In this document: piece by piece, positions 8,449 through 51,181 of the stretch
Layout of the letters: every line of letters begins with the position of its first letter
Position numbering within the stretch: position 1 is the first letter of the stretch
Assembly: GCA_965215605.1 (NCBI GenBank)
Contig: OZ244070.1
Location: 3,552,001-3,616,000 of the forward strand
Origin: an uncultured Candidatus Binatia bacterium
Lineage (GTDB): Bacteria; Desulfobacterota; Binatia; UBA9968; JAJDTQ01
Direction: 5' to 3'
Length of the DNA stretch: 64,000 bases
Made by a program: the position numbers and the translations under genes
The notes under the pieces: generated by a model
Told to the model about the DNA's origin: nothing
The model's input: the letters and a program-made list of their open reading frames with translations, nothing else
Database searches by the model: none

Positions 8449-8467
8449 GGACGCGACGGGGTCGAGG

Positions 8468-8500: not shown

Positions 8501-8521
8501 GTTTGGCGGCGTGGACGAGGC

Positions 8522-10716: not shown

Positions 10717-10717
10717 C

Positions 10718-10741: not shown

Positions 10742-10815
10742 GGGCGATCGCGCCTTGCCGGCAACGAAGAACCCCGCGGGGGCGGGTAGCACCCGGCCGA
10801 AGGCCGCCAACGGGT

Positions 10816-11892: not shown

Positions 11893-11923
11893 TGGATGCT
11901 CCTTCCTGGGTTGGTCCAGTGCC

Positions 11924-12008
11924 CTTGTATTTCGGGTGGCCTTCGCATGTCAACCGCAAAGCCCCGCTCGGGTGCGGATTTGACAACCTCCGGTGCTTCG
12001 GTTAAGAA
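11924..12008. promoter_or_regulatory. Back-to-back divergent sigma70-type promoters for tctC and ubiD
   Basis: Plus strand TTGACA (11980-11985)-N17-TAAGAA; minus strand TTGACA (11953-11948)-N18-TACAAG. Confidence 0.5.
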
Positions 12009-12066
12009 CCCGGAATCTTCGGAAATCCAGCACTGAGAATTCAACACTTTAGGAGAGAGGTGACAC

Positions 12067-27469: not shown

Positions 27470-27516
27470 ACCGGACCGCTGGACGAGTCCATACAAGACA
27501 GTGAGTGGAGGTAACG

Positions 27517-34517: not shown

Positions 34518-35459
34518 ATGCCGGTACAGTTTGGAGTCGCCATTCGCAATTTCGTCGGTCCGGGGGAGACCCCGGACGTGGACGGGCTGATACGTTATTC
34601 CCGGCGCGCCGAGGAGTTGGGCTTCGAGTCGCTCTGGGCGTGGGACCACATCCTGCTGGGGGTGGAGCCGAGCTTCCCGGTGCTGGACTCGCTGACCATC
34701 CTTACCGCCATCGCCGTCCGCACCGAACACATTCGGCTGGGCACCGGGGTGATGGTGCTGCCGCTGCGCAACCCGGTGGTGACCGCCAAGGTCCTGGCCA
34801 GTCTGGACCAGATCTCCAACGGCCGCCTGCTGCTTGGGGCTGCCTCCGGCTGGTACGCCCGGGAGTTCGACGCGGTGGGCATCTCCTTCAAGGACCGCGG
34901 CCGCATCTTCGAGCGCAACCTCGATCTGCTGGTGCGGCTCTGGACCGAGGACAGGGTGACCGAGCAGGTGGACGAGTTGAACCTCCGGTCGGCGGTGCTT
35001 CTGCCCAAGCCGGTGCAGAAGCCTCATCCCCCCATCCTGATCGGCGGGTACATCGACCGGGTGCTGCGCCGGGCGGGCCGCAAGGGGGACGGCTGGCTCA
35101 CCTACTTCTACACTCCGGAGGGCTTTTCCAAGAGCTGGGCCAAGGTCCTGGACGCGGCGGAAAAGGCCGGCCGCGATCCGTCGAAGCTCACGGCCACGAA
35201 CCAGCTCGCCATCTACGTGGGCCCCTCCAGGGAGGAGGCCGACGAACCCATGCGCCACTGGCTCACCACCGAGTGGGACATCGCGAAATGGAGTGATTCC
35301 ACCATCGACCACGCCATTCGCGGGACCGCCGACGAGTGCGCGGAGCAGCTCCAGGCCCATGTGGACGCCGGTGTTCACCGGATCATCCTGATCCCCTACC
35401 GGTACCAGCCGGAGCAACTGGAAAGGATCGCCTCGGAAGTGATTCCCAGGTTGACCTGA
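34518..35459 (+). CDS. LLM-class oxidoreductase, possibly F420-dependent
   Basis: GFESLWAWDH, RLGTGVMVLPLRNP, LDQISNGR, EFDAVG, PKPVQKPHPPILIGG. Confidence 0.88.
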   Translation: MPVQFGVAIRNFVGPGETPDVDGLIRYSRRAEELGFESLWAWDHILLGVEPSFPVLDSLTILTAIAVRTEHIRLGTGVMVLPLRNPVVTAKVLASLDQISNGRLLLGAASGWYAREFDAVGISFKDRGRIFERNLDLLVRLWTEDRVTEQVDELNLRSAVLLPKPVQKPHPPILIGGYIDRVLRRAGRKGDGWLTYFYTPEGFSKSWAKVLDAAEKAGRDPSKLTATNQLAIYVGPSREEADEPMRHWLTTEWDIAKWSDSTIDHAIRGTADECAEQLQAHVDAGVHRIILIPYRYQPEQLERIASEVIPRLT

Positions 35460-35484
35460 AAGCCTGCGGAGGGGGAGAGAGCCC

Positions 35485-36384
35485 ATGCGGTTTGACTATT
35501 TCGAGCCGACGACACTGGATGAGGCCGGCGAGTTGCTGCGGAAAGGGAAGGGCGCCCGCAGACCGCTTGCCGGCGGCACCGACATCGTCATACAGTTGCG
35601 CCGGCGGGTGGTCAGCACGCAGGGCCTGGTGAACCTGAAGCGGATACCGGAGCTTTGGGGCTGGGCGCGGGAACCCGGCGAGGGGCTCTGGCTCGGCGCC
35701 TGCACGCCCATGCGGGACCTGGAGACCGCCGCCGCCGTGGGCGAGCGTTTTCCTTCCATCACCGAGGCGCTTCGGGTGGTGGGGTCGCTGCAGTTGAGAA
35801 ACATCGCCAGCGTGGGCGGCAATCTGTGCAATGCTTCGCCGTCGGCGGACACGGCGCCGCCGCTGGTGGCGTTGGGGGCGACGGCCAGTGTGCATACCGC
35901 TGAATCCCGGCGGGAAACGGTGCGGGTGGAGAATTTCTTCGAGGGGCCCGGCACATCGGTGCTGGGCGCCGGCGGACTGCTCCTGGCGGTGGAAGTGCCC
36001 GAGCCGTTGCCGCACGCCGGCGACGCCTTCGAGCGCTTCACCCCGCGGTCGGCCATGGACATTGCCATCGCCAGCGCGGCCGCGGCGGTGACGCTGGACG
36101 CGGCCGGGGAGAAGGTGGCGACGGCGCGGATCGCGCTGGGCGCGGTGGCGCCCACGCCCGTGCGGGCTCTCAGGGCCGAGGAGTTCGTGCAGGGCAAGGA
36201 GTTGACGCCCGAGGTCCTGGAGCGGGCGGGCCGGGCGGCCATGGGTGAATGCCGGCCCATCGACGACATCCGCGGGTCGGCGGCCTACCGCAAGGAGCTG
36301 GTGGGCATTCTCGTGCGACGCGTGTTGCGGCAGGCAGCGGAGCGGGCCCGGGCGCGCTCCAACGGCGGGACGGAAACGGTATGA
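35485..36384 (+). CDS. Molybdenum hydroxylase FAD subunit (CoxM/NdhF-like)
   Basis: LAGGTD, RNIASVGGNLCNASPSAD, DDIRGSAAYR; no 4Fe-4S Cys insert. Confidence 0.92.
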   Translation: MRFDYFEPTTLDEAGELLRKGKGARRPLAGGTDIVIQLRRRVVSTQGLVNLKRIPELWGWAREPGEGLWLGACTPMRDLETAAAVGERFPSITEALRVVGSLQLRNIASVGGNLCNASPSADTAPPLVALGATASVHTAESRRETVRVENFFEGPGTSVLGAGGLLLAVEVPEPLPHAGDAFERFTPRSAMDIAIASAAAAVTLDAAGEKVATARIALGAVAPTPVRALRAEEFVQGKELTPEVLERAGRAAMGECRPIDDIRGSAAYRKELVGILVRRVLRQAAERARARSNGGTETV

Positions 36385-36860
36385 AACAGCGCTATGTTCT
36401 GCGGGTGAACGGCGCCGCCAGGGAAGCGGAAGCCGAGCCTCACGAGTCGCTGCTGGACGTGCTGCGGGAGAACCTTCGGCTGACCGGCAGCAAGAAGGGC
36501 TGCAACGAGGCCGAATGCGGCTCGTGCACGGTGCTGCTGAACGGCCGCCCGGTGGTGTCCTGCCTGGTGCTGGTTCCGGACGCCGTGGGCCGGGACATCG
36601 TCACCATTGAAGCCCTGGCCGAAGACGGGACTCCCCACCCGGTGCAACGGCAGATGGTGGAACAGGGCGGCGTCCAGTGCGGCTACTGCACTCCCGGAAT
36701 GATCATGAGCGCCTACGCGCTGCTCCAGGAGAATCCGCATCCCACCGACGAGGAGATCCGCTTCGCCATTTCCGGCAACATCTGCCGCTGTACGGGGTAC
36801 GGCAAGATCGTCAAGGCGGTCCGGGCGGCCGCGGAAGAGCTCGGGGGGGCGGCGTCATGA
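36381..36860 (+). CDS. Molybdenum hydroxylase 2x[2Fe-2S] subunit (CoxS/NdhS-like)
   Basis: GCNEAECGSC...SC and QCGYCTPG...CRCTGY; ATGA overlap. Confidence 0.94.
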   Translation: MKQRYVLRVNGAAREAEAEPHESLLDVLRENLRLTGSKKGCNEAECGSCTVLLNGRPVVSCLVLVPDAVGRDIVTIEALAEDGTPHPVQRQMVEQGGVQCGYCTPGMIMSAYALLQENPHPTDEEIRFAISGNICRCTGYGKIVKAVRAAAEELGGAAS

Positions 36861-38164
36861 GCGAAGACACCTCCCGGGACACGGCCGGCGCGTACCAGTG
36901 GATAGGAACGAACGTCACCAAGCCGGATGCGCTGGAAAAGGCGCTGGGGGCCACCGAGTACGTCGGCGACATGGTGATGCCGGGCATGCTCCACGCCAAG
37001 ATCCTGTGGGCGGGAATGCCCCACGGGGTGATCCGGAACATCGACACCGGAGAGGCCGCCCGGGTGCCCGGCGTGGCGGCGGTGGTCACCGCTTCGGACG
37101 TGCCCGGCACCAACCGTTACGGACTGGCCGTGCCGGACCAGCGGGCGCTGGCCGACGACAAGGTGCGGTCGGCGGGCGACGCGCTGGCACTGGTGGCGGC
37201 GGAGGACGAGGCGGCGGCGGAGGAGGCGGTGGCCAGGATCAAGGTGGACATCGAGCCGTTGCGTCCCATTCTTACCTACGAGGACGCGCTGGATCCGGAT
37301 GCGCCCGCGATCCACGAAGGCGGCAACGTGTTCCAGCACACCACCGTGCGCAAGGGCGATCTGGAACAGGGCATCCAGGAGTCCGACGTGATCGTGGAGG
37401 ACGCCTACCATACCCATCGCATGGATCACGTCCCCATGGAGCCGGAGGCGGGCCTGGCCTACGTCGATCCCTCCGGCGTTCTGAACATCCTGGTGGGGAC
37501 CCAGTATCCCTATCGGGACCGGCGTCAGATCGCCCCGGCCCTGGACCTGGCCATGAACAAGGTACGGGTGATCCAGGCCCCCATCGGCGGCGGCTTCGGA
37601 CGCAAGGACGACATCACGGCGGAGATCCACGTGGGCCTGCTGGCGCTGAAGACGCGCCGGCCGGTGCGCCTGGTCTACACCCGGGAAGAGTCTCTCATCG
37701 CCAACACCAAGCGCCATCCCATGGCCATGAGCTTCCGCACCGGCGCCCGCAAGGACGGACGGCTGACCTTCCTGGACGGCGACATCTACGGCGACACGGG
37801 CGCGGGGGTTTCCCTCGGCGCCTACGTCATCAAGAAGGCGGGCATCCACGCCACCGGCCCCTACGACGTGCCCAACATCCGGGTGGACACCTACACGCTC
37901 TACACCAACAATCTCGTCTCCGGGGCCATGCGCGGCTTCGGGGTGATGCAGGCGGCAGTGGCCCACGAGTCGCAGATGGACCAGTTGGCCCACCGGCTCG
38001 GAATGTCGCCGCTGGAGTTCCGGATCAAGAACTGCCTCAAGCCGGGGCTCGCCGCCTCCACCGGACAGTTGATGAACGAGGGCTGCGGCATCGAGGCGAC
38101 GCTGCAGCGGATCAAGGACTACATGAGCGCGCACGACCTGCGCTTCAAGCGGCCTCAAGCATGA
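36857..38164 (+). CDS. Molybdenum hydroxylase Mo subunit, N-terminal half (NdhL-like)
   Basis: PMEPE, GTQYP, IGGGFGRK, TKRHP, AMRGFG, HESQMD; ATGA overlap. Confidence 0.9.
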   Translation: MSEDTSRDTAGAYQWIGTNVTKPDALEKALGATEYVGDMVMPGMLHAKILWAGMPHGVIRNIDTGEAARVPGVAAVVTASDVPGTNRYGLAVPDQRALADDKVRSAGDALALVAAEDEAAAEEAVARIKVDIEPLRPILTYEDALDPDAPAIHEGGNVFQHTTVRKGDLEQGIQESDVIVEDAYHTHRMDHVPMEPEAGLAYVDPSGVLNILVGTQYPYRDRRQIAPALDLAMNKVRVIQAPIGGGFGRKDDITAEIHVGLLALKTRRPVRLVYTREESLIANTKRHPMAMSFRTGARKDGRLTFLDGDIYGDTGAGVSLGAYVIKKAGIHATGPYDVPNIRVDTYTLYTNNLVSGAMRGFGVMQAAVAHESQMDQLAHRLGMSPLEFRIKNCLKPGLAASTGQLMNEGCGIEATLQRIKDYMSAHDLRFKRPQA

Positions 38165-38184
38165 GGCTCATGAGCTGAACGGCC

Positions 38185-39198
38185 ATGGCAACAAGAAAAG
38201 GCTTGGGCATCGGCTCCATGTACTACGGCATCGGCTACGGCTTCAGCCGCGCCGACATCGGCTCGGCCGAGATCGAGATGGCCGAGGACGGCACCACCAC
38301 GATCTACTCGGGCGCATGCGACATGGGCCAGGGGGTCATGACGGTGGTGACCCAGGTCGCCGCGGAGGAGCTCGGCATCGAGCCCGACCAGATCCGCGTG
38401 GTGGCCGCCGATACCGGCAGTACGCCGGACGCCGGGCCCACCTCGGGCAGCCGCGCCACTTTCGTGCAGGGCGTGGCGGTGCAGAACGCGGCCCAGGAGT
38501 TGCGCGGGCAGATCCTGGACATGGCCTCGCGCATGCTGGAGTGTCCGAGGGAGAACCTGCACGTGCGGCGGGGCGAGGTGTGCGAGGCCGGCACCGACCG
38601 GCCGCTGGTGTCGGTGGGCAAGGTGGCGCATCAACTCCATTTCCATGGGCGGCGGGCGGCGGCCTGGGGCTGGCACGACAACACCACCGCGGACGTGGAC
38701 CCGGAGACCTCTCAGGGCGACGCCTACGCCACCTACGGCTGGGCCACGCAGTTGGCCGAGGTGGAGGTGGACACCGAGACCGGCCGCATCCGGCTGACCA
38801 AGCTGGTGTCGGCCACCGACGCCGGCAAGGCCATCAACCCGGTGGCGGTGGAGGGGCAGATCGAGGGCGGCGCCGCCATGGGCCTGGGCTACGGCCTCTA
38901 CGAGCAGCACATCCTGGAGAACGGCGTGCCGCGCACGGCATCCCTGGCATTCTATCTCGTGCCCACGTCCATGGACGTGCCGGACATCGAGTGCGAGATC
39001 GTGGAGGTGCCCGATCCCAAGGGGCCGTTCGGCGCCAAGGGCGTGGCCGAGCCGGCCACCATTCCCACGACGCCGGCCATCCTCAACGCCATCTACGACG
39101 CCATCGGCATTCGCATCACCGAGACTCCCATCACGCCGGAACGGGTCTTCTTCGCCATCCAGGAGGCCAGGGCCCGGGGCGAGTTCGAAGAAGACTGA
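38185..39198 (+). CDS. Molybdenum hydroxylase Mo subunit, C-terminal half (NdhM-like)
   Basis: RKGLGIGSMYYGIG start, DMGQG, TSGSRAT, EGQIEGG, GPFGAKGVAEP (catalytic Glu). Confidence 0.9.
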   Translation: MATRKGLGIGSMYYGIGYGFSRADIGSAEIEMAEDGTTTIYSGACDMGQGVMTVVTQVAAEELGIEPDQIRVVAADTGSTPDAGPTSGSRATFVQGVAVQNAAQELRGQILDMASRMLECPRENLHVRRGEVCEAGTDRPLVSVGKVAHQLHFHGRRAAAWGWHDNTTADVDPETSQGDAYATYGWATQLAEVEVDTETGRIRLTKLVSATDAGKAINPVAVEGQIEGGAAMGLGYGLYEQHILENGVPRTASLAFYLVPTSMDVPDIECEIVEVPDPKGPFGAKGVAEPATIPTTPAILNAIYDAIGIRITETPITPERVFFAIQEARARGEFEED

Positions 39199-39213
39199 GG
39201 CGGGAGGAACGCA

Positions 39214-39903
39214 TTGGGTCATCGCGTCGGACTGCTTGTCCCTTCGTCGAACACCGTCATGGAGGTGGATTTCTACCGCCATCTGCCGGCGTCGGCCACG
39301 GTCCACACCGGCCGGATGTACATGGAAGCCACCACGGTCAAGGGCGAGGAAGAGATGCTCGACGAGCACTGCCTGCCGGCGGCCGCCGACGTGGCCACCG
39401 CCAGGCCGGACCTGATGGTGTTCGGCTGCACCAGCGCGGGGGCGCTGCGGGGCAATGCCTACGACGCCGATCTGTGCCGCCGCATCTCCGACGTCGCCGG
39501 CGCGCCCACCGTCAGCGTCATCGAATCGGTGCGGCGCAAGCTCGCGTCGCTGAAGGTCAAGCGGGTGGCGGTGCTGACACCCTATATCGAAGACCTCAAC
39601 GTCCGCATCAAAGCCAGCGTGGAGGATGACGGCCTTGAGGTGGCATCGATCCACGGCATGGGGATCAGCGTCAACTTCAACCTGGCGCTGGTGGAGCCGC
39701 CGGAGATACTGGCCTTCGCCCGGGAGAAGCTGGGCGCCCGGCCGCAAGTGGACGCCCTGTTCATTTCGTGCACCAACTACCAGGCGGTGGCGACACTGCC
39801 GGAATTGAAGAAGCTGTACGACATGCCCATCGTCACCAGCAACCAGGCCGCCCTCGAAGCCGTGGGCCGGCAACTGGACGTGGGGTTGGTGGACATGGGT
39901 TGA
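39214..39903 (+). CDS. Maleate cis-trans isomerase / Asp-Glu racemase family protein
   Basis: GLLVPSSNTVME, FGCTS and ISCTN (two-Cys dyad), VTSNQA; TTG start after GGAGG. Confidence 0.88.
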   Translation: MGHRVGLLVPSSNTVMEVDFYRHLPASATVHTGRMYMEATTVKGEEEMLDEHCLPAAADVATARPDLMVFGCTSAGALRGNAYDADLCRRISDVAGAPTVSVIESVRRKLASLKVKRVAVLTPYIEDLNVRIKASVEDDGLEVASIHGMGISVNFNLALVEPPEILAFAREKLGARPQVDALFISCTNYQAVATLPELKKLYDMPIVTSNQAALEAVGRQLDVGLVDMG

Positions 39904-39915
39904 GGAGGAAACCCG

Positions 39916-40788
39916 ATGGAATTCATGAAACTCGACGGCGCCGTGGACCTGCACGTGCACTCCTATCCGTGCGTGTTCCAGCGGCGGGTGGATGACCGGG
40001 AGGCGGTCAAAGCCGCCTCGGACGCGGGCATGGCGGCCATCGTGCTGAAGTGCCACCACGAGAGCACGGTGAGCCGCGCGTATCTCATTCAGAAGGAGTT
40101 TCCCGACATCAAGGTGTTCGGCGGCGTGGTGATGAACCAGTTCGTGGGCGGCATCAACCCGGCGGCGGCGGAGGTGGGGCTCCGGCTCGGCGCCAAGGAG
40201 ATCTGGATGCCCACCATCGACGCGGCCCATCACGTGGAAATCCACGGCGCCCGGGGCAGCTACGACACCCAGACCAGCGGCTCGGACTTCGTCTGGGGCG
40301 ACCCCATCTCCGCGGTCAAGGACGGCAAGGTGGTGGACGAGGCCCTGGTGGTGCTGGAGCTCGTCGCCAAGTACGACGCCATCCTGGGGACCGCGCACCT
40401 CTCCCTCGCAGAGATCGAGCTGCTGGTGAAGGCGGCCCACGAGCGGGGGGTGAAGAAGATCCTGATCACCCACCCGTATTTCCGGGTGCCCGCGGGCATG
40501 AACCTGGACTTCCTGAAGCAGATGATGCGCTACGGCGCCATCGGCGAGTTCGGTTACTGCACCATCTCGCCCATGTGGGCGTACGTGAACCTGGAGTTCA
40601 CCAAGGGCATCATGGACTCCATGGGTTTCGACAACTGCGTGGTCATGAGCGACACCGGCCAGTCCCACAACCCGCTGCCGCCGGAGGCGTTGTGGCTCTA
40701 TGCCCAGGGGCTCTACGAAAAGGGAGTCTCGCCCAGGAACGTGGAGAAGCTCATCGTCGACAACCCTCGGGCGATGCTTGGCATCTGA
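39916..40788 (+). CDS. Metal-dependent amidohydrolase-fold protein (DUF6282-like)
   Basis: DLHVH, VLKCH, GGINP, WMPT, TAHL, THP, SDTGQ motifs. Confidence 0.8.
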   Translation: MEFMKLDGAVDLHVHSYPCVFQRRVDDREAVKAASDAGMAAIVLKCHHESTVSRAYLIQKEFPDIKVFGGVVMNQFVGGINPAAAEVGLRLGAKEIWMPTIDAAHHVEIHGARGSYDTQTSGSDFVWGDPISAVKDGKVVDEALVVLELVAKYDAILGTAHLSLAEIELLVKAAHERGVKKILITHPYFRVPAGMNLDFLKQMMRYGAIGEFGYCTISPMWAYVNLEFTKGIMDSMGFDNCVVMSDTGQSHNPLPPEALWLYAQGLYEKGVSPRNVEKLIVDNPRAMLGI

Positions 40789-40823
40789 CGGGCTACGGAA
40801 AGAGACGGGCGGAAAGGACGGCC

Positions 40824-41858
40824 ATGACGGATTGGGCATCCCGGGGACGGATCGCGGAAGACATCACCGAGGCGGCGGGGCTGACGCCCTTGCTCCGGTT
40901 GCGCAAGGTGGCGGCGGGCCCGCAGGCGTTGTGCGGCAAGCTCGAGTTCATGAACCCGTCATCGAGCCTCAAGGACCGTATCCTGCGGCGCATGGTGCGG
41001 AGCGCGGAGGAACGGGGGGAGCTCAAGCCCGGCATGACCATCCTGGAAGCCTCCACCGGCAGCACCGGCATCGCCACTTCGATGATCGGCGCGGTGTGCG
41101 GCTACCCGGTGGTGGTGGTGATGCCCGAGGGCATGAGCGAGGAGCGCAAGGCCTCCATGCGCGCCTACGGCGCGGAGCTGGTGCTGACGCCCGGGGCGGA
41201 GAGCGACGTGGACCTGTGCCTGGAGAAGGTGGAGGAGTTGAAGCGCGCCGAGCCGGACCGCTACTGGGAGCCCGGCCAGTTCTCCAACCGGGACAACATC
41301 GCGGCGCACTACGAGACCACCGGGCCGGAGATCTGGCACCAGACCGAGGGGCAGGTGGACGTGTTCGTGGCTTCCCAGGGCAGCGGCGGCACCGTATCCG
41401 GCGTCGGCAAGTATCTGAAGGAGCGGAACCCGGAGGCGAAGATCTACGCCGTGGAGCCCGAGGAATGCCCGATCCTGTCGGGCGGGACCTGGGGACCCCA
41501 CGCCATCGAAGGCATCGGCGACGGCTTCATCCCGGAGAACCTGGACCTGGACTACGTGGACGGCGTGGTGACGGTCTCGTCCGAGGATTCCATCGCCATG
41601 GCCCGGCGCTTGGCCCGGGAGGAAGGCGTCCTGTGCGGCATTTCGTCCGGCTGCAACGTGGCGGCGGCCAACAAGCTGTCGGCGGCGTTGCCGTCCGCGA
41701 AGATGATCGTGACCATGATCAACGACACCGGCATGCGCTATTTCTCCACGCCGCTGTTCGGGAAGGACGAGGCCACCGAGATCCCCGACCGCGAGCATCC
41801 CATTCGTGAAGAAGACAAGGCCAATCTGGCGCACCGGAACCTGCATATCGTTCGTTAG
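40824..41858 (+). CDS. Cysteine-synthase-like PLP fold-II enzyme (divergent)
   Basis: KLEFMNPSSSLKDR, EASTGSTG, QFSN..N, HYETTGPEI, GSGGT, IEGIG, GISSG; ATG 40824 after AAAGGA. Confidence 0.85.
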   Translation: MTDWASRGRIAEDITEAAGLTPLLRLRKVAAGPQALCGKLEFMNPSSSLKDRILRRMVRSAEERGELKPGMTILEASTGSTGIATSMIGAVCGYPVVVVMPEGMSEERKASMRAYGAELVLTPGAESDVDLCLEKVEELKRAEPDRYWEPGQFSNRDNIAAHYETTGPEIWHQTEGQVDVFVASQGSGGTVSGVGKYLKERNPEAKIYAVEPEECPILSGGTWGPHAIEGIGDGFIPENLDLDYVDGVVTVSSEDSIAMARRLAREEGVLCGISSGCNVAAANKLSAALPSAKMIVTMINDTGMRYFSTPLFGKDEATEIPDREHPIREEDKANLAHRNLHIVR

Positions 41859-41942
41859 GTGCCTTTTTCGCTCCACAGTGCGGTGCGGGCGCGGGCAACG
41901 GCCGTGCACCCTGGAACCTGCGCTCCAAGAAGCGAAACTGCA

Positions 41943-41965
41943 GGGGCGGGTTTCAAGCCCGCCCG
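41943..41965 (+). repeat. REP-like palindrome
   Basis: GGGGCGGGTTTCAAGCCCGCCCG, identical to 34466-34488. Confidence 0.65.
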
Positions 41966-41995
41966 CATAAGGATCAACCGGACGGGACGCCGCCG

Positions 41996-43231
41996 ATGCC
42001 CCTCCCCGAAAGCCTGACCTGCGTCCTGTGCGGTGCCGCCTACCCGGAAGGTGCCAACCAGTACAGTTGCCCGGAATGCGGGGAACTGGGGACCCTGCGG
42101 GTGTCCTACGACTACGACCGGATCAAGGCATCGGCGAGCCGTGACGGCTTGGCCGCCGTGCCGTTCCGGGATCACTGGCGCTATCTGCCGCTACTGCCCT
42201 TGGCCGCCGACCGGGTCGAGTTCCCGCTGGCGGTGGGAGGAACGCCGCTCCATCCGGTGCCCGGCCTGCGCAAGGAACTGGGCCTGGAACGGCTCTGGGT
42301 CAAGGACGATACCGCCAATCCGTCCGCTTCGCTGAAGGATCGGGCCAGCGCCGTGGTGCTGCTCAAGGGAAAGGAGCTGGGCCGCCGGGAGTTCGCCGCC
42401 GCCTCCACCGGAAACGCCGGCGCATCCCTGGCGTGCCTGTCGGCGGCCCTGGGGCTTCCCTGCCACGTCTTCGTGCCCGAGTCGGCGCCGAGGGCCAAGG
42501 TGGCGCAGCTCGTGGTCTTCGGCGCCGACGTGCTCTCCGTCCGCGGCAGCTACTCCGAGGCGTTCAGCCTGTGCGTCGAGGCCAGCGAGCGCTTCCGGTG
42601 GTACAACCGCAACACCGGCTACAATCCCTACACCGTGGAGGGGAAGAAGACCGTGGCGCTGGAGATCGCCGAGCAGCTCGGCTGGGAGCCGCCCGATACG
42701 ATCATCGTTTCCACCGGCGACGGCTGCATCCTGAGCGGCATCTGGAAGGGGTTCACGGATCTCCATCGGCTGGGGTGGATCTCCCGGCTGCCGCGGCTGG
42801 TGGCGGCCCAGGCCGAGGGCTCCCAGTCCATCAAGCAGGCCTTCGACGGCGACGGCATCATCCGCCCCGTGGCGGAAGACACGCTGGCGGACAGCATCAG
42901 CGTCGCGTTGCCGCGGAACGGAGTGATGGCGGTGCAGGATCTCAAGGCCTCCGGGGGGAACGCGACAAGCGTGTCCGACGGCGAGATCCTCCAAGCCATG
43001 CCGCTGCTGGGCAAGACCACGGGACTGTTCGCGGAGCCGGCCGCCGCCGCGGCCGTGGCGGCGCTCGTGAAGCTCGTGGACCAGGGCGAGCTCTCGTCCG
43101 GCGAGCGCGTGGTCGTCCTGTCCACGGGCCACGGCCTCAAGGACGTCGACGCGGCATTGCGGGCGGTCGATCCGCCGGAACCGGTCGACTGCTCGATTGA
43201 CGCGGTAAGGGAAAGAATACAAAGGTCATGA
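41996..43231 (+). CDS. Threonine-synthase-like PLP enzyme with N-terminal Zn ribbon
   Basis: CVLC...CPEC, NPSASLKDR, ASTGNAG, EGKKT, TGDG, TGHGLKD. Confidence 0.85.
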   Translation: MPLPESLTCVLCGAAYPEGANQYSCPECGELGTLRVSYDYDRIKASASRDGLAAVPFRDHWRYLPLLPLAADRVEFPLAVGGTPLHPVPGLRKELGLERLWVKDDTANPSASLKDRASAVVLLKGKELGRREFAAASTGNAGASLACLSAALGLPCHVFVPESAPRAKVAQLVVFGADVLSVRGSYSEAFSLCVEASERFRWYNRNTGYNPYTVEGKKTVALEIAEQLGWEPPDTIIVSTGDGCILSGIWKGFTDLHRLGWISRLPRLVAAQAEGSQSIKQAFDGDGIIRPVAEDTLADSISVALPRNGVMAVQDLKASGGNATSVSDGEILQAMPLLGKTTGLFAEPAAAAAVAALVKLVDQGELSSGERVVVLSTGHGLKDVDAALRAVDPPEPVDCSIDAVRERIQRS

Positions 43232-43291
43232 TGGGCGGAAGATGGGTGGCGCAACCGGGAACGAGAACGAATGGGAGGCAAGGAGAATCGA

Positions 43292-44659
43292 GTGCCACAG
43301 GATCTACAGAGTTTCTTGAAGCGATTGAAGGAGGAATGCCCCGAGCAGTTCCTCGAGGTGGACGAGCCGGTGTCCCGGGAGTTCGAGGCCACGGCCCTGG
43401 TCATGGAGGCGGAGCGGCTGCCGTCCTGCCCGGCGGTGATGTTCCGGAACATCACCGGGAGCGAGTTCACCATGGCGGCCAACGTGCTGGCCCACCGTCC
43501 GCGTCTGGCCTGGGCCTTCGGGACGTCGGAGGAGGGGCTGGTGCACGAGTTCAAGGAGCGCATCCAGAGGCCCATGTCCCCCGAGGTGTCCAAGGATGCC
43601 CCCTTCCGGGACAATACCCTGCGGGAGGCGGCGGTGGATCTGGGACAGCTCCCCATTCTGACCCATTTCGAGCAGGACGGCGGCCCCTACGTGACCGCCG
43701 GGCTGTTGGTGGCGCGGGATCCGCAATCCGGCATGAGCACGGTGGGTTTTCATCGCATGCAGCTCAAGGGGCCGCGCAAGCTCGGAGTCAGCCTGCACTC
43801 CCGGCGCCGCATGTTCGAGTACTTCCGGCGCGCCGAGGAAAAGGGCGAGTCCCTGGAAGCCGCGGTATGCATCGGCGTGCACCCGCTGATCTCCCTGGGC
43901 GCCTTGACGTTACCGCCGGCCGGGGTCGAGAAATTTGCGCTCCAGGGAGGGCTCCTGGGCGAGCCTTTGGAGTTGACGCCCTGCGCCACCGTGGACGTCG
44001 ACGTGCCCCGGTGGTCGGAGATCGTCATCGAGGGACGGATCCTCAAGGACGTGCGGGAGAAGGAAGGGCCGTTCGGCGAGTTTACGGGGTACGCTTCGAG
44101 CCGGAGCACGGAGAACGTCTTCGAGGCCACCGCACTGCACTACCGCAACGGCGCCGTCTACCAGGACATCAACGGCGGCGACAGCATGGAGCATTGCCGC
44201 TGTCTCTCCATGCCCCGTGAGGTGGAGTTCACCAACGTGCTGGGCAAGACCATACCCAACCTCAAGGCGGTGCACGTGCCGGTGCGCTCGGGCATCGGCA
44301 GCTTCCACTGCTACGTGTCCCTGCGCAAGACCGCCGAGGGGCAGGGGAAGCAGGCCATCTTCAGCGTCCTGGGCGCCGACCACTACGTCAAGCTGGTGGT
44401 GGTGGTGGACGACGACATCGACATCTTCGACGAGGAGCAGGTGCTGTGGGCCATCGCCACCCGGATGCAGGCCAACAGGGACGTCTTCATCATCGACGAG
44501 GCCATGGGAACGCTGCTGGACCCGTCGGCCACTGACGCCGTCACGGCGAAGATGGGCATCGACGCCACCAAGCCCCTGGGCGAGTACGCCTCGACCCTTT
44601 CCATCGAGCCGGGCGCGGTGGAGCGGGCGCGCCGGCTCATGAGCAAGCTGACCGGTTGA
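43292..44659 (+). CDS. UbiD family protein, paralog 3 (atypical metal-ligand residues)
   Basis: DGGPYVTAG, EGPFGEFTGY, VDDDID...WAIATRMQ, LDPS, KMGIDAT; GTG 43292 after AAGGAG. Confidence 0.92.
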   Translation: MPQDLQSFLKRLKEECPEQFLEVDEPVSREFEATALVMEAERLPSCPAVMFRNITGSEFTMAANVLAHRPRLAWAFGTSEEGLVHEFKERIQRPMSPEVSKDAPFRDNTLREAAVDLGQLPILTHFEQDGGPYVTAGLLVARDPQSGMSTVGFHRMQLKGPRKLGVSLHSRRRMFEYFRRAEEKGESLEAAVCIGVHPLISLGALTLPPAGVEKFALQGGLLGEPLELTPCATVDVDVPRWSEIVIEGRILKDVREKEGPFGEFTGYASSRSTENVFEATALHYRNGAVYQDINGGDSMEHCRCLSMPREVEFTNVLGKTIPNLKAVHVPVRSGIGSFHCYVSLRKTAEGQGKQAIFSVLGADHYVKLVVVVDDDIDIFDEEQVLWAIATRMQANRDVFIIDEAMGTLLDPSATDAVTAKMGIDATKPLGEYASTLSIEPGAVERARRLMSKLTG

Positions 44660-44663
44660 CCGC

Positions 44664-46241
44664 ATGGAGAGCTTCCGGACTTTCCTGGACGATTTGCGGA
44701 ACGCCGGCGAACTCGTCGACATCCACAAACCCGTGGATGTCCGGCACATCGCCGCGTTGGTGGACCAGGCGTCCACCGCGCTGTTGTTCCATAGGGTGCG
44801 CGGCTACGAGATGCCCGTGGTCTCGGGGCTCCTGAACGACCGCCGGCGCATTGCCCTGTCGGCTGGTTGCGACTACGCGCAGATGGAGCGGCGGCTCGGC
44901 CACGCCCTCGATCATCCCGTCGATCCCATCGAAGTCGGCGACGGCGGCGCGAGGAGTTGGTATCGGGAAGGGGCCGAGGTGGACCTCTTCGCCCTGCCGG
45001 TGCCGGTGTTCTCCGAGTTCGACGGCGGTCCCACGATTACGGCCGGCGTCACCCTGGCCCACGATCCCGAATACGGACTGAACGCCGGCACCTATCGTTT
45101 CCAGGTAAAGGAACGTGCCCTCACCGGCATCGACATCGTCACCCCCAACAACCTGCGCAGGCTGGCGGAGAAGGCCCTGGCGGCCAACGCGCCGCTGCCC
45201 ATCTCCATCAACATCGGCACCCACCCGGTGGAGCTGATGGCGTCCCTCTACAAGGCGCCCCTGGGGCGGAACGAGCTGGCCATCGCCGGCGGCATGCTGG
45301 GGCGGCCGGTGCGCCTGGGCGCCTGCCGGACCATCGACGCGCCCTGCCTGGCGGACGCGGAGATCGTGCTGGAGGCGGAGATCCTGCCCACCGGCTGGAC
45401 CCGGCAGGAGGGGCGGTTCGGCGAGATGACGCGCCTCATGGGCGACGTGCACTACAATCCTCACGTGCGGGTGAAGGCGATCTCGCGCCGCGAGGACGCC
45501 ATCTACTACGCGCTGCACATGCCCTGGGAGAACATCTGGATCAAGGAGCACGGTTTCCAGGCGGTGCTCAAGCGGGTCCTCGACGCGGCCGGGGTGACGG
45601 TGACCGCGGTGAACGTCACGCCGGGAGGCTGCTGCCACTGGCACGCCGTCATCGCCATCCGGAAGCAGCCCGGCGATCCTCAGAACGCCATCATGGCGGC
45701 GCTGTCGGTGGCGGACCTCAAGCACGTGGTGGTCGTGGATGACGAGATCGACGTCTACGACGCCATGGAGGTGGAATGGGCCATGGCCACCCGGGTGCAG
45801 GCCGACCGCGACATCACTATCCTCTCGGACGCCCGCTCCAAGCCCCTGGACCCGAGCTTGCCGCTGTCGGAAGGCATCCCCACCACCGCCAAGTGCGGCA
45901 TCGACGCCACCATTCCCGACGGCGTCCCCAAGGCGCGGTATCAGCGCATCACCTATCCCCACGCGGATGAGCTGGACCTCGGCGCCTACCTGGGCGAAGC
46001 GGAGGCCGGCGAGGGGTCGCCCGAGACCCTGGTTGAAGCTGCCAGCGCGAGCGTCGAGGATGCCGCGGCGGCCATACGCGGACTGCTCGCCGCCGGGTCC
46101 ATGTACTTCAGCGAGATCGCGGAAAGCGTTCCGGGAGCCGGTTTCCAGTCCGTCGCCCGGACGATGGGCGAGTTGCACGCCGCCGGAGAGATCGATCAGG
46201 ACGCGGAGGGGCGCTACCGGCTGGCGTCGGAGAGGCGCTGA
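44664..46241 (+). CDS. UbiD family protein, paralog 4, with C-terminal winged-helix-like extension
   Basis: DGGPTITAG, NAGTYR, EGRFGE, VDDEID...WAMATRVQ; extra ~60-aa tail MYFSEIAE...GELHAAGEIDQDAEGRY. Confidence 0.9.
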   Translation: MESFRTFLDDLRNAGELVDIHKPVDVRHIAALVDQASTALLFHRVRGYEMPVVSGLLNDRRRIALSAGCDYAQMERRLGHALDHPVDPIEVGDGGARSWYREGAEVDLFALPVPVFSEFDGGPTITAGVTLAHDPEYGLNAGTYRFQVKERALTGIDIVTPNNLRRLAEKALAANAPLPISINIGTHPVELMASLYKAPLGRNELAIAGGMLGRPVRLGACRTIDAPCLADAEIVLEAEILPTGWTRQEGRFGEMTRLMGDVHYNPHVRVKAISRREDAIYYALHMPWENIWIKEHGFQAVLKRVLDAAGVTVTAVNVTPGGCCHWHAVIAIRKQPGDPQNAIMAALSVADLKHVVVVDDEIDVYDAMEVEWAMATRVQADRDITILSDARSKPLDPSLPLSEGIPTTAKCGIDATIPDGVPKARYQRITYPHADELDLGAYLGEAEAGEGSPETLVEAASASVEDAAAAIRGLLAAGSMYFSEIAESVPGAGFQSVARTMGELHAAGEIDQDAEGRYRLASERR

Positions 46242-46283
46242 CCTGCGGTCCTGGACAGCCGCAGGTCTTCAGCGCTGGTCTGT

Positions 46284-46312
46284 TTGACAGCGTTCAAGGG
46301 CTGCGATAACAG
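46284..46312 (+). promoter_or_regulatory. Putative promoter TTGACA-N17-TAACAG
   Basis: Read directly upstream of the AAAGGAG RBS of 46339. Confidence 0.45.
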
Positions 46313-46338
46313 CCTTTGGGCCTAAAGGAGAACGCCTG

Positions 46339-47427
46339 ATGCCGACCATCAACGATGCCGACGGCCACATCAACGACTACTTCTTCGGCGACGAGATCGC
46401 CAAGTACATGCCCGAGGGGAACCAGTTCAGCCAGATGTTCCCGGTGTTCGACCACCTGCACTTCCGTTACCTGATGAAGAACCGGGTGCCCAAGTACGTC
46501 GGCGGCAGCATGAAGACCGCGCCGGGTCCCGCGGAGTGGCTGGAGTTCATCGAAGAGACCGGCATCGCCTGGAGCGTGCTCTACCCCAGCGCCGGGCTGG
46601 GGGTGGGGCGCATCGTTTCGGTGGAGTGGGCCATCGCCGCCTGCCGGGCCTACAACAACTGGCTGCACGATCGTTTCACCAGCACCACGCCGCGTCTCAA
46701 GGGCGTCGGCCTCATTCCGATCCAGGACGAAGAGGCCGCGTGCGCCGAGCTGCAGCGCTGCGTGCGGGAGTTGGGCATGGTCGGCGCCATGCTGCCGTCC
46801 AACGGCGAAGCCATCAAGGGGCAACTGGGCGCCAAGGCCTATTGGCCGATCTACGAGGAGGCGGAGAAGCTCGGCTGCTGTCTCACCGTGCACGGCGGCG
46901 CGCACCATCACCTCGGCCTCGACGGCTTCAGCGTGTACTATCCGGTGCACGCCCTCGGCCACCCTTTCGGGATCATGGTGCAGGCGGCGGCGATGCTCAG
47001 CCACGGCATCTTCGAGCGCTTTCCCCGGCTACGGGTGGCATTCCTGGAAGGGGGCGCCACCTGGGTGCCGTTTTTCATGGACCGGCTCGACCGGTCCTAC
47101 AACGAGGGGCATCTGCAGATCGACCTCGCCGGCGACCCGGTCCCAGGCCCCCGGCCGGGCGAGAAGGCCAGCGAGCATTTCAAGCGTCACGTCCGGGAGG
47201 GGAGGATCTTCGTCGGCTTCGATTGCGACGACGCCGGTCTGGCCTTTGCCGTGCAGCAGGCCGGCGCCGAGCCCTTCCTGTTCGCCAGTGACTTCCCGCA
47301 TGAGGTATTCGACGCGGCATCGTGCCGCCACGAGATCGACGAGTTGCTGCAGCGGGACGACCTGACCCAGGATCAGAAAGAGGCGGTGCTGGGCGGGAAC
47401 GCGGCGCGGCTGTACGGTATCGGTTAG
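46339..47427 (+). CDS. Amidohydrolase_2 family protein
   Basis: DADGH, VLYPS, CRAYNNW, TVHGG, AFLEGG, FASDFPH. Confidence 0.87.
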   Translation: MPTINDADGHINDYFFGDEIAKYMPEGNQFSQMFPVFDHLHFRYLMKNRVPKYVGGSMKTAPGPAEWLEFIEETGIAWSVLYPSAGLGVGRIVSVEWAIAACRAYNNWLHDRFTSTTPRLKGVGLIPIQDEEAACAELQRCVRELGMVGAMLPSNGEAIKGQLGAKAYWPIYEEAEKLGCCLTVHGGAHHHLGLDGFSVYYPVHALGHPFGIMVQAAAMLSHGIFERFPRLRVAFLEGGATWVPFFMDRLDRSYNEGHLQIDLAGDPVPGPRPGEKASEHFKRHVREGRIFVGFDCDDAGLAFAVQQAGAEPFLFASDFPHEVFDAASCRHEIDELLQRDDLTQDQKEAVLGGNAARLYGIG

Positions 47428-47518
47428 GCAAATTCTTCTCCATGTCGCCGGAGGCCAAGAAGGGGCTGGGCGTTCTCGTGCGGAAGAAGAAAAAGTAGGA
47501 AACGGGTACCACGCGATC

Positions 47519-48511
47519 ATGCTGTTTCTCACGGAAGAAGACGTTCTCCGGGCGGTGGAAGGCCGAAACGCGTACGGAGAGGCGGTGGCGGTCATCGAGG
47601 AGGTGCTGCGCCAGCAGTCCGAGGGCAGCACGTTTCATCTCAAGCGCCTGACCATGGAGCACCCCGATCACCCGGGTCATCTCTGGCACAACATCCGCAT
47701 CCTGCCGGGCATGGTGCCGGAACTCGGTTACGCGGCGGTGCGGGTCTACTCGGGATACCAGGGGACCAACCGGTCCGAGGTCATCTGTCTGTTCAATTGG
47801 GAAGACATGGAGATGTCGGCCATCATTTCCGACTATCATCTGCACGCCATCCGCACCGCGTCTCCTTACGGCGTGGCGGCCAAGTACCTGTCGCGCGCGG
47901 ATGCGCAGACCCTGGGGGTCATCGGCACCGGACGCTACGCCAAGGGCTTCGTCCAGGCCTGCTGCGCGGTGCGCGACATCCGGCACGTCAAGGCGTATAG
48001 CCGCAACGCGGAGAACCGGCGGCGGTTCCGTGAAGAGATGACGGAGGTTCTGGGCATCGAGGTGGTGGCGGTGGAGTCCGGCCGGGAAGCCGTCCGGGAC
48101 ACGGACATCATGTTGCTGGCGACCTCCGGCAACACCATCGTGTTCGAGGGCGGCTGGCTGGAGCCGGGGACGCTGGTCATGTCCCTGGCTCCCGGGGAGT
48201 TCGACGAAGCCACGGCGCTGGGCTCGCGTGTGTTCCTCTCCGGCACCGACCAAGTGCTCGGCGACAGCCCGCCCCGGAAACCGTTTCCGTCGCTGCTTGC
48301 CAGCGGCAAGTTCAGCAAGGACGACGTGGCGGCGGAGTTCTGCGATGTGGTGTCCGGGAAGATGCCAGGTCGCGGAAGCGATGACGAGATCATCCTCTAC
48401 GAGTCTCCGGGCATGGGCATCCTCGACGTAGGCATCGCTGGCTGGGTCTACCGGCTGGCCCGGGAAAAGGGGTTGGGCACCGATCTGCCCTTTGGGGAAG
48501 AACCCGGGTAG
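47519..48511 (+). CDS. Ornithine cyclodeaminase / mu-crystallin (imine reductase) family protein
   Basis: IRTAS, GVIGTG, LATSG, PGE, GR..DEI..YESPGMGILD. Confidence 0.85.
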   Translation: MLFLTEEDVLRAVEGRNAYGEAVAVIEEVLRQQSEGSTFHLKRLTMEHPDHPGHLWHNIRILPGMVPELGYAAVRVYSGYQGTNRSEVICLFNWEDMEMSAIISDYHLHAIRTASPYGVAAKYLSRADAQTLGVIGTGRYAKGFVQACCAVRDIRHVKAYSRNAENRRRFREEMTEVLGIEVVAVESGREAVRDTDIMLLATSGNTIVFEGGWLEPGTLVMSLAPGEFDEATALGSRVFLSGTDQVLGDSPPRKPFPSLLASGKFSKDDVAAEFCDVVSGKMPGRGSDDEIILYESPGMGILDVGIAGWVYRLAREKGLGTDLPFGEEPG

Positions 48512-48546
48512 GGACGAGTTCAGGGTTTCCCCAACGGTGAGGTGAA

Positions 48547-50034
48547 ATGCGCACATTGATTCGCGGCGGCTGGATCGTCGGCTACCAAGGCGAGACCCAC
48601 GCGCTGCTGCGCGATGGCGTGGTGGTGTTCGAGGACGGGCGCATCCTGCACGTGGGCGCTGATTTTGAAGGGAACGTGGACCGGGAGATGGACGCCGACG
48701 GGATGTTGGTGGCGCCGGGTTTCATCGACATGCACGTCCACGGCGGCCACCGGGCTTCACACCGGCTGATCACGGACACCGGGCGGCCGGATTACTTCGG
48801 CCAGCCGTTCCTGGAGATCAGCGTGCCGCGGGAAGGGACCCGGCCGGCGGGCGATCCCCGCTACATGAGGCCCGACCAGGCCGGCGCCACCGAAGGCACG
48901 GACCTGCACGCCACCTTCACCGTGGCCGAGCTCTTGCGCAACGGCGTCACCACGTTCATGGAGATCGGCAGCCAGCTCCGGGTTCAGGAAGGGTTGCTCA
49001 AGGAGGTCGACCGGCTCGGCGCCCGCGCCTACCTGGGCCCCGGCTTCGACTCGGGCCGCTGGGTGGCGGACGAAAAGGGCCGGCTCAAGCGCGCGCTGGA
49101 CGAGGCCGCGGGCTGGCGTGAGTTCGAGGGCGCGGTGGAGTTCATCAAGCGGGTGGAAGGCAGTTGCGGCGACCGGGTCCGGGGCATCCTGATACCGCGG
49201 GAGGCCGAGACCTGCACGTTGGATCTCCTGAGGGCGACGCGTAAGGCAGCCGGCGATCTCAAGGTGCCGATATCGACCCACGCCGCCTACAACATCATCG
49301 AGTTCTACGAGCTCGTGACGGAACATCGCATGACCCCGGTGGAGTTGCTGGAGTCGGTGGGCCTTCTGGGCCCCGACCTCACCATCGGACACGGGAACCT
49401 GGTGGCCGAGAACCCCCAGTTGAACTTCGCGGGGGGCCGGGACGTGGATCTCATGGGCGAATACGGCGTGTCCATCTCCCACTGTCCGGTCAACATTGCC
49501 CGCCGGGGCCGTTGCCTCGACTCCTGGGAGCGGTACCGCAAGGCCGGCGTCAACATCGCCTTGGGGAGCGACACCTACCCGCGGGACTTCATGATGCAGA
49601 TGCGGGTGGCCTCGTACTTCGGCAAGGTCATCGGACACAACCTGCGCGCGGCCACGGCCGCCGAGGTGTTCGAGGCCGCCACCCTGGGCGGCGCCAGGGC
49701 CTTGGGGCGGGACGACCTCGGGCGGCTGGCGCCGGGAGCGCGCGCGGACATCATCATCGTCGACATTTCCGGAAGGGGCACGCTCAGGTACGGGCCGGTG
49801 CGCGATCCCATCAAGAGCCTGGTGGAATGCGGCATCGGCGACGATGTCCGCACGGTCATCGTCGACGGCGAGGTGCGGATGGAGGAGGGGCGGATTCCCG
49901 GAGTGGATATCGAGTCCCTGCGGCGGCAGGCACAGGAGGCCGCGGAGTTCGCCTGGGACCGCCTCCAGGACTGGGACGCGCTGGGGCGGAGCGCGGAGGA
50001 GATGAGCCCCTGGTCCTTCCCGTTGATGAAGTGA
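48547..50034 (+). CDS. Chlorohydrolase/deaminase-like amidohydrolase (AtzA/TrzA family)
   Basis: PGFIDMHVH, LLRNGVTT, STHAA, ISHCP, ALGSD, ATLGGARALG, GARADI. Confidence 0.87.
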   Translation: MRTLIRGGWIVGYQGETHALLRDGVVVFEDGRILHVGADFEGNVDREMDADGMLVAPGFIDMHVHGGHRASHRLITDTGRPDYFGQPFLEISVPREGTRPAGDPRYMRPDQAGATEGTDLHATFTVAELLRNGVTTFMEIGSQLRVQEGLLKEVDRLGARAYLGPGFDSGRWVADEKGRLKRALDEAAGWREFEGAVEFIKRVEGSCGDRVRGILIPREAETCTLDLLRATRKAAGDLKVPISTHAAYNIIEFYELVTEHRMTPVELLESVGLLGPDLTIGHGNLVAENPQLNFAGGRDVDLMGEYGVSISHCPVNIARRGRCLDSWERYRKAGVNIALGSDTYPRDFMMQMRVASYFGKVIGHNLRAATAAEVFEAATLGGARALGRDDLGRLAPGARADIIIVDISGRGTLRYGPVRDPIKSLVECGIGDDVRTVIVDGEVRMEEGRIPGVDIESLRRQAQEAAEFAWDRLQDWDALGRSAEEMSPWSFPLMK

Positions 50035-50058: not shown

Positions 50059-50088
50059 CGTTCCGGCGAAACAGGGTATGCCGGAACG
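50059..50088. terminator. Hairpin between convergent genes (possible terminator or REP-like element)
   Basis: CGTTCCGGC-N12-GCCGGAACG; no U-tract. Confidence 0.35.
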
Positions 50089-50128
50089 GCATCCGAGGGA
50101 TGGGGGCGGGAGTGACGAATTCACGGGG

Positions 50129-51004: not shown

Positions 51005-51181
51005 GGACGGTTCGCCGCTTCCGGAAGGTACCATGTTTGCGCTCCCCCATCGACACGCCCCGAAGGGCTGGGGCCGGGCTCCGGGAGAGGGGCAAAAGCC
51101 TTTGCTGACGCGGAGTTGCAATTGCACAGGAGTTCAGCTAACGTAGCCTTTCGTTCGCAGTCCATCCCCTCGAGGTTTTCA

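Follow-up and report, generated by a model that had tools for sequence, protein, structure and literature searches.

A clade of UbiD-family proteins carrying threonine, arginine and lysine at the positions of the canonical metal-site residues

Canonical enzymes of the UbiD family hold the ribityl phosphate of their cofactor, prenylated flavin mononucleotide (prFMN), by way of Mn2+ together with K+ or another monovalent ion (PMC7662398, PMC7976604, PMC8988006). In PA0254 the metal is reported to be bound directly by His188 and Glu229 and through a water by Ser165, its ligands being just two protein residues and four waters, and the same structural paper describes the Glu ligand as invariant among all putative UbiDs (PMC3650080). 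Here we describe a UbiD-family gene in a 64,000-nucleotide (nt) stretch of DNA from an uncultured Candidatus Binatia bacterium (contig OZ244070.1, positions 3,552,001 to 3,616,000; hereafter the window), the product of which has Thr157, Arg180 and Lys221 where canonical relatives have Asn, His and Glu (N/H/E). Residues are numbered from the ATG at 43271, and the numbers of the 455-amino-acid (aa) form are obtained by subtracting 7. The replacements (T/R/K) are conserved in a well-supported clade, and Lys at the Glu position has arisen repeatedly in related UbiDs. We consider it somewhat more probable than the contrary that this protein is an active prFMN decarboxylase that grips the cofactor phosphate with an Arg and a Lys in place of Mn2+ and K+.

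The positions of the replaced residues were established by alignment with a solved homologue and with genomic relatives. In an HMMER comparison with PDB sequences, HmfF (6h6v) was the first match of the target (E 4.2e-88, 299 bits). In that alignment T157 (STVGFHR) corresponds, with no local ambiguity, to the Asn of RNVSIHR, while R180 (SRRRMF) corresponds to the His of PRHLW and K221 (GVEKF) to the Glu of GVDEL. Alignment with the nearest canonical genomic relatives is gapless and gives the same register, SLHSRRRMF in the target standing opposite SLHSRRHLW and E-K-F opposite D-E-Y. The HmfF residues are taken here to be metal ligands by homology and from the Fdc1 numbering N168/H191/E233, numbers for which no confirmation was found in the literature searched. 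PMC5818171 yielded nothing on the UbiD metal site. The spacing of T157, R162, R180, K221, E265 and E270 is also identical to that of Ser165, Arg170, His188, Glu229, Glu273 and Glu278 of PA0254 (residues named in PMC3650080), a match that was counted from residue numbers and serves as a consistency check only.

These alignments uphold the reading of a first-pass annotation of this DNA, made from the sequence without database searches, that Asn, His and Glu had given way to Thr, Arg and Lys and that the catalytic Arg and EGPFGE were intact. The target motifs are TVGFHR (157), HSRRR (176), GVEKF (218) and EGPFGE (265), and R162, E265 and E270 are all present. The annotation had allowed that a proper alignment might bring the His of SLHS or the Glu of GVEK to the metal site; neither residue lies there, and the register holds. 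As a shifted ligand E220, the Glu of GVEK, is ruled out by its variability among clade members, where D, G, S or R also occur, and H176, the His of SLHS, by its presence in the canonical sister clades as well. The clade alignments contain no conserved substitute for a metal ligand near the site, with no acidic or His residue gained. The target thus lacks the Asn(Ser)/His/Glu site for Mn2+ (and K+) that is canonical for the family and possesses its catalytic R162/E265/E270 network, which is invariant in a 25-sequence clade alignment. The interpretation that the annotation drew from the loss of three ligands is supported in part. The change of Asn to Thr is by itself weak evidence, because PA0254 (HudA) has Ser at this position and still binds Mn2+ (PMC3650080, PMC7976604).

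Membership of the target in the UbiD family is clear. Pfam recognised the three-domain architecture (UbiD_N, PF20695, 53 bits; UbiD, PF01977, 204 bits; UbiD_C, PF20696, 107 bits), and the generic NCBIfam model TIGR00148 scored 348.4 bits against a curated cut-off of 244.85. All of the NCBIfam equivalog models that matched remained far below their cut-offs (bits scored/bits required): VdcC 288/650, mena_SCO4490 221/496, UbiD PRK10922 164/788, phenylphosphate carboxylase alpha/beta 127/565 and 119/469, and BagN/FevL 112/1000. An AlphaFold2 model built from the 25-sequence clade alignment (mean predicted local distance difference test score, pLDDT, 89.1; predicted template modelling score 0.86) matched HmfF 6h6v of Pelotomaculum thermopropionicum best in Foldseek, with template modelling (TM) scores of 0.87/0.90 and 37% identity. 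AroY, VdcC, InD, UbiD, HudA and Fdc1 followed in that order, and TM scores over the whole set including HmfF were 0.80-0.87. The predicted fold is that of the solved UbiDs, and the protein probably belongs to the HmfF-like branch of the family.

The variant is not the peculiarity of a single gene that the first-pass annotation had described. A search of 5.8 billion protein clusters was evaluated for its best 120 entries (90%-identity clusters, 48-92% identity), and in the joint alignment 119 of these nearest clusters carry T/R/K and one carries T/R/Q. Conservation within a clade, which the annotation had proposed as a check, is thereby established, and chance substitution is excluded. A scan of genomes, one per species, produced 595 matching stretches, of which the top 80 were retained as 79 loci: 17 T/R/K, 52 N/H/E, 6 N/D/E, 1 H/R/K, 2 of other types and one partial locus ending in the K motif. 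The T/R/K loci come from a Ca. Binatia metagenome-assembled genome (MAG) with 93% identity to the target (L001), from Methylomirabilota/Rokubacteria MAGs (about 50%) and from alphaproteobacterial MAGs (about 45%). A FastTree phylogeny was computed for 174 sequences, namely the four window paralogues, 13 clade members, 15 locus proteins and 142 of 150 family representatives, the eight left out being shorter than 400 aa. The T/R/K group is monophyletic in this tree (23 leaves, support 0.998), and its sister is a canonical N/H/E clade marked by SLHSRRHLW (joint support 0.862).

Comparison of 133 clade sequences with 41 canonical relatives, of which 6 belong to the sister clade and 35 to a wider set (a 403-aa fragment was left out), indicates how narrowly the two groups differ. 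With a diagnostic position defined as one at least 90% conserved in the clade and present in at most 10% outside it, only five of 462 positions qualify, T157, G159, R180, K221 and H371, and four of the five form the metal site. T157 occurs in 99% of the clade sequences, with N in all 41 canonical relatives; G159 occurs in 100%, the relatives having S (38) or A (3). At the R180 position the relatives have H or D, and at the K221 position they have E, apart from one H and one D. A further 61 positions, including R162, E265, G266, P267 and E270, are conserved in both groups. As read from these alignments, what sets the clade apart is a remodelled phosphate/metal site, the UbiD core being ordinary in other respects, and the site replacements are under clade-wide purifying selection. 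The sole diagnostic residue outside the metal site, H371, is His in 91% of the clade and immediately precedes the VVVVDDD strand in the C-terminal domain. As a separate observation, one contig with a Methylomirabilota-like T/R/K UbiD 51% identical to the target (L004) is labelled Nitrosotalea sp. and has 71% G+C, at odds with the low G+C of that archaeal ammonia-oxidising genus; the contig is probably mis-binned.

Replacement of the metal-site Glu by Lys extends beyond this clade. An HMMER search of 1.84 billion representatives (clustered at 50% identity) gave 6371 matches, 965 of them at E <= 1e-30, and variants were tabulated for the best 150 of the 6371. The Glu position is Glu or Asp in 106 of these, Lys in 33 and another residue, mostly His, in 11. 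The first site position co-varies with it: Asn is present in 102 of 102 aligned Glu/Asp-types as compared with 2 of 32 aligned Lys-types, the cells of the table being 102 for Asn with Glu/Asp, 30 for non-Asn with Lys, 2 for Asn with Lys and 0 for non-Asn with Glu/Asp. At the second position His or Asp is found in 98 of the 106 Glu/Asp-types, while among the 33 Lys-types His is found in only three and Asp in at most one. Fitch parsimony on the 174-leaf tree assigned the Lys state six changes, five gains and one change of K to Q inside the T/R/K clade, compared with 43.5 changes on average, and never fewer than 36, when labels were shuffled. The Lys-type lineages are the T/R/K clade itself, a large Ser/Gly/Ala-Pro-Lys clade (22 leaves, support 0.90), L048/P0263, in which the Arg and Lys pair has arisen a second time, P0194/P0248/P0229, and P0240. 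The catalytic R-E/D-E residues are kept, where aligned, in 31 of 34 Lys-type rows (the 33 representatives and the window protein), the exceptions being P0175, P0242 and truncated rows.

The names attached to these lineages are uninformative. Source databases call the Lys-types only 'UbiD family decarboxylase' or, automatically, '2,5-furandicarboxylate decarboxylase 1', and an NCBIfam scan of 14 other Lys-type proteins placed nothing but the generic TIGR00148 above cut-off. For the four Lys-type lineages searched (the T/R/K clade, P0153, P0263 and P0229) the best PDB match is the canonical HmfF. No solved Lys-type structure was seen among the PDB matches, the triads having been inspected in some but not all PDB UbiDs. 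It is in our estimation an even chance that Lys-type UbiDs constitute a widespread metal-free way of holding prFMN with about five convergent origins, T/R/K being its most complete form with both Arg and Lys. A bolder version of this proposal would have the remodelled phosphate site read a chemically different cofactor tail. Two other groups in the same tabulation merit mention. The Ser/Gly/Ala-Pro-Lys clade (including P0150, P0153, P0177-P0179, P0193, P0201, P0205, P0209, P0210, P0213, P0214 and P0218-P0221, among others) is HmfF-like and uncharacterised and has the motifs ANPP and EGPFGESTGYY; its phosphate binding may differ from that of the T/R/K clade because only one positive charge has been gained. 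A small clade of its own (P0123, P0180, P0189, P0204, P0245 and P0259) has N/H/H, with Glu changed to His, and probably still binds metal through an all-nitrogen/oxygen ligand set.

In the mechanism that we favour, R180 and K221 stand at the N-terminal ends of the two helices which in canonical UbiDs carry the His and Glu ligands, and their guanidinium and ammonium groups would form salt bridges to the prFMN phosphate; T157 would donate a hydrogen bond and G159 would make room. Such an arrangement would preserve net charge, the sum of Mn2+ (+2), K+ (+1) and Glu (-1) being +2, as is the sum of Arg (+1) and Lys (+1). The first-pass annotation had offered three readings, metal-independent binding of the phosphate, a different cofactor and a non-catalytic subunit; the sequences favour the metal-independent one and disfavour the subunit. 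Metal-independent binding is preferred because the replacements are invariant across the clade and turn two metal ligands into two cationic side chains, and because the conserved UbiD core and the catalytic R/E/E residues are unchanged and UbiX is co-operonic with two clade members. In an Afipia MAG (L017) the T/R/K gene is followed, 33 nt further on, by the gene for a UbiX-family flavin prenyltransferase (PRK06029, 254 bits, cut-off 188), and in L020 a run of a GntR regulator, the T/R/K UbiD and an NMT1-type ATP-binding cassette (ABC) transporter is closed by UbiX (263 bits). The organism of the window presumably makes prFMN, since the window holds two canonical UbiDs.

Several observations weigh against this mechanism. 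Direct binding of the phosphate, metal independence and activity are all inferred from sequence, and the reach of R180 and K221 to the phosphate is predicted from sequence and helix position. Model confidence is lower near the site (block mean pLDDT 78 at 171-180 and 82 at 211-220). The first site position is no strict ligand, as the Mn2+-binding PA0254 with its Ser illustrates (PMC3650080, PMC7976604), and the large x-P-K class gains one positive charge only, so that the charge argument does not generalise. The sequences behind the co-variation are phylogenetically related and amount to about 5 independent events, not 30. Finally, UbiX was found in the fetched flanks of 29 of the 79 loci, adjoining only 2 of 17 T/R/K loci as compared with 27 of 62 others, and there is no UbiX in the 64,000-nt window.

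One alternative is that an ion (Mg2+, Mn2+ or a monovalent cation) is retained at the phosphate, its ligands being phosphate oxygens, waters, T157 and backbone carbonyls, while R180 and K221 act only in the second shell. The sparse protein coordination in PA0254, two ligands and four waters with Ser at the first position (PMC3650080), lends this some plausibility, T157 could take over the role of that Ser, and backbone-carbonyl sites for a monovalent ion would not be visible from sequence. We nevertheless regard it as unlikely, given that the His and Glu side-chain ligands are both now cationic and would repel a cation, that the invariant replacements co-vary with loss of the Asn in about five lineages, and that no acidic or His residue compensates, E220 being variable and H176 common to canonical clades. 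A different cofactor would retain the basic site and change what it binds: the Arg/Lys pair would fit a flavin-type cofactor with another phosphate (a diester, a pyrophosphate-bearing or a deazaflavin-derived one) instead of prFMN. The altered site is exactly the one that reads the phosphate, UbiX lies beside only two of the 17 T/R/K loci, and F420-related genes occur near some members: the window operon includes an LLM F420-type oxidoreductase, and L014 has CofC/CofH, CofD and an F420 oxidoreductase. These F420 genes could equally serve neighbouring enzymes, however, and UbiX is directly co-operonic in L017 and L020. Moreover, the clade-specific changes are limited to the four site positions and H371, and the 61 core positions shared with canonical relatives therefore argue for the same isoalloxazine/prenyl pocket and the same chemistry; we rate a different cofactor as quite improbable.

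Two further alternatives concern the role of the protein more than its phosphate site. As an ordinary orthologue of HmfF it would be a 2,5-furandicarboxylate decarboxylase, the name that the Joint Genome Institute (JGI) gives to several clade members ('2,5-furandicarboxylate decarboxylase 1'), and HmfF is its best PDB match by sequence and by fold. Identity is only 37%, though, and HmfF has N/H/E, so that neither orthology nor the same cofactor site is indicated; the neighbouring genes encode Mo-hydroxylase, amidohydrolase/deaminase and pyridoxal phosphate (PLP) enzymes and not furan-pathway functions. Four Lys-type lineages and many canonical clades also match HmfF best in the PDB, so that the furandicarboxylate name reflects a lack of closer references. 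We consider orthology very unlikely. Less credible still would be a non-catalytic or regulatory subunit that has lost cofactor binding and partners the adjoining UbiD at 44664-46241, in the manner of heteromeric UbiD-type carboxylases. Heteromeric UbiD-family enzymes do exist (NCBIfam has phenylphosphate carboxylase alpha/beta models), the two UbiD genes lie 4 nt apart here, and the same pair occurs in L001. R162, E265 and E270 are invariant across the clade, however, and the site changes lead to specific conserved residues rather than to decay. Within the fetched flanks, 16 of the 17 T/R/K loci are without a second UbiD; the pair recurs in L001 only (1 of 17), which rules out a conserved heteromer with the adjoining UbiD as a property of the clade. 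Metal-independent binding of prFMN by Arg and Lys thus remains the reading that we prefer.

Features of the window discussed in the text (window positions; all on the + strand)
Feature	Position	Strand	Remarks
Canonical UbiD paralogue, N/H/E	12067..13512	+	Pfam/NCBIfam, alignment
Canonical UbiD paralogue, N/H/E	27505..28959	+	NWGTYR, PGKH, VPEYDFIGG
Co-directional gene run around the target	34518..50034	+	Pfam, NCBIfam
Xanthine dehydrogenase (XDH)-like Mo hydroxylase	35485-39198	+	Large subunit split: MoCoBD_1 36677-38164, MoCoBD_2 38185-39198
AAGGAG, Shine-Dalgarno-like hexamer	43280..43285	+	6 nt before GTG 43292; read from sequence
T/R/K-type UbiD family decarboxylase gene (target)	43292..44659	+	455 aa from GTG 43292
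T157-V-G159 (ACG..GGT)	43739..43747	+	N-x-S in canonical relatives; Asn is the first metal-site position
R162	43754..43756	+	Catalytic Arg of the R-E-E network, kept
R180 (CGC)	43808..43810	+	Aligned with the His metal ligand; N-terminal end of modelled helix 179-190
K221 (AAA)	43931..43933	+	Aligned with the Glu metal ligand; N-terminal end of modelled helix 221-229
E265-G-P-F-G-E270	44063..44080	+	Two catalytic acidic residues, kept
H371	44381..44383	+	Fifth residue diagnostic of the clade; canonical relatives have L, P or M
Second UbiD of the pair	44664..46241	+	Starts 4 nt past the target stop; overlooked in the first-pass annotation

The open reading frame (ORF) listing gives the target mechanically as ATG 43271..44659 (+), 462 aa. 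GTG 43292, the start given in the first-pass annotation, is probably the true one, because AAGGAG precedes it by 6 nt and its 455-aa product equals the closest homologues in length; the ATG at 43271 has no obvious ribosome-binding site, and the G+C content of the window is 66%. Alignment confirmed that the paralogues at 12067 and 27505 keep N/H/E, as had been claimed for them. The second UbiD of the pair has N140/N163/E204 (N/N/E), with His replaced by Asn. Its catalytic motif is EGRFGE (249; EGRFGEMTR), and at the C-terminus it is extended by about 110 aa (45909-46238) in which Pfam recognises nothing.

The co-directional run begins with the LLM F420-type oxidoreductase, the flavin adenine dinucleotide (FAD), 2Fe-2S and split Mo subunits of the XDH-like enzyme, an Amdase/EutA-like protein and DUF6282, and continues with CysK-like and ThrC-like PLP enzymes, the two UbiDs, Amidohydro_2, an ornithine cyclodeaminase/mu-crystallin protein (OCD) and a chlorohydrolase-family protein (PRK06151, 563 bits). 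Upstream of the split MoCoBD frames lie the FAD subunit (35485-36384) and the 2Fe-2S subunit (36249-36860), the mechanical starts of which overlap, their true starts being uncertain. Gene order from the CysK-like gene through the chlorohydrolase gene is the same in L001. Across the 17 T/R/K loci, all-against-all ORF clustering and Pfam annotation of 148 neighbouring genes revealed no fixed operon that would name the substrate. Certain themes do recur: Mo-hydroxylase large subunits in L008, L009, L013 and L014; the chlorohydrolase PRK06151 in L014 (directly downstream), L017, L001 and the window; and NMT1-type ABC transporters, GntR regulators and DUF1989.

Two other regions of the window were noted in passing. 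Tandem Amidohydro_2 genes (6252-7370 and 7360-8448) lie near the canonical UbiD at 12067, together with a TctA transporter gene (9085-10716, -) and a weak TctC-like gene (10816-11892, -), and the region 6252-13512 may be a second (de)carboxylation locus. The frame 50078-52258 (+) has its chorismate mutase, prephenate dehydratase and ACT domains from residue 373 onwards; the roughly 370 codons before them lack a Pfam match and have a lower third-position G+C (0.73). Its start is probably over-called, or else the frame carries an additional N-terminal region.

UbiDs are investigated as reversible (de)carboxylases with a view to fixing CO2 and making bio-based chemicals, and active holo-enzyme has recurrently been hard to obtain, cofactor loading being described as dependent on Mn2+/K+. 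If prFMN is indeed held by Arg and Lys, the clade would offer a natural metal-independent scaffold and a means of asking directly how the metal contributes to cofactor binding and to maturation. The signature T-x-G ... SRRR ... K would then also split the pool of proteins annotated 'UbiD family decarboxylase' or mis-named as 2,5-furandicarboxylate (FDCA) decarboxylase. The recurrent change of Glu to Lys with loss of Asn is a clear-cut example of a metal site being replaced convergently by charges on side chains. No UbiD with Arg/Lys at the metal site was described in the full-text literature searched, which takes in few subscription papers, and an earlier remark may exist. The family, the fold and the probable chemistry are known; the anchoring of the cofactor appears to be different, and it is conserved and repeatedly evolved.

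Among characterised systems, there is a likeness in gene content to cluster I of Cupriavidus sp. LA-1, which is reported to degrade pterins and lumazine and to comprise a Mo lumazine dehydrogenase, an amidohydrolase-type isomerase, a pterin deaminase, UbiX and XCDC (PMC12391406). XCDC (LA1_0150) is a UbiD-family xanthine-8-carboxylate decarboxylase that was assayed with K+ and Mn2+ present (PMC12391406). The window run, with its Mo hydroxylase, amidohydrolases, chlorohydrolase-family deaminase-like protein and UbiDs, resembles that cluster, as do several T/R/K loci, a likeness of gene content alone, and because of it our guess at the substrate is a nitrogen-heterocyclic carboxylate. The window run adds CysK-like, ThrC-like and OCD/mu-crystallin genes, of which the LA-1 description consulted makes no mention for cluster I (PMC12391406).

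PA0254/HudA, a pyrrole-2-carboxylate decarboxylase (4IP2, 7ABN), resembles the target in its UbiD fold and in the same six-residue spacing. Its first site position also varies, Ser165 being second sphere, but unlike the target it keeps His188 and Glu229 and is reported to require Mn2+ and K+ (PMC3650080, PMC7976604). Binding of prFMN without Mn2+ has precedent in UbiX and LpdD (PMC10865409); these proteins differ from the target in having unrelated folds and in binding the reduced form, prFMNH2, which they make or chaperone but do not use in catalysis. HmfF (6H6V/6H6X) shares the three-domain UbiD architecture and the catalytic HR...EGPFGE with the target and differs in having Asn/His/Glu in place of Thr/Arg/Lys, and at 37% identity a common substrate is not implied. 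Closest of all are the uncharacterised SLHSRRHLW UbiDs of the sister clade (L015, L016, L018, L026, P0124 and P0250), with about 41-44% identity to the target. UbiX is found near L015, L016 and L018, within about 100 nt in L016 and L015. These proteins share the SLHSRR and FTGYAS motifs and the catalytic residues with the target, whereas at the four site positions they retain N-x-S, H and E.

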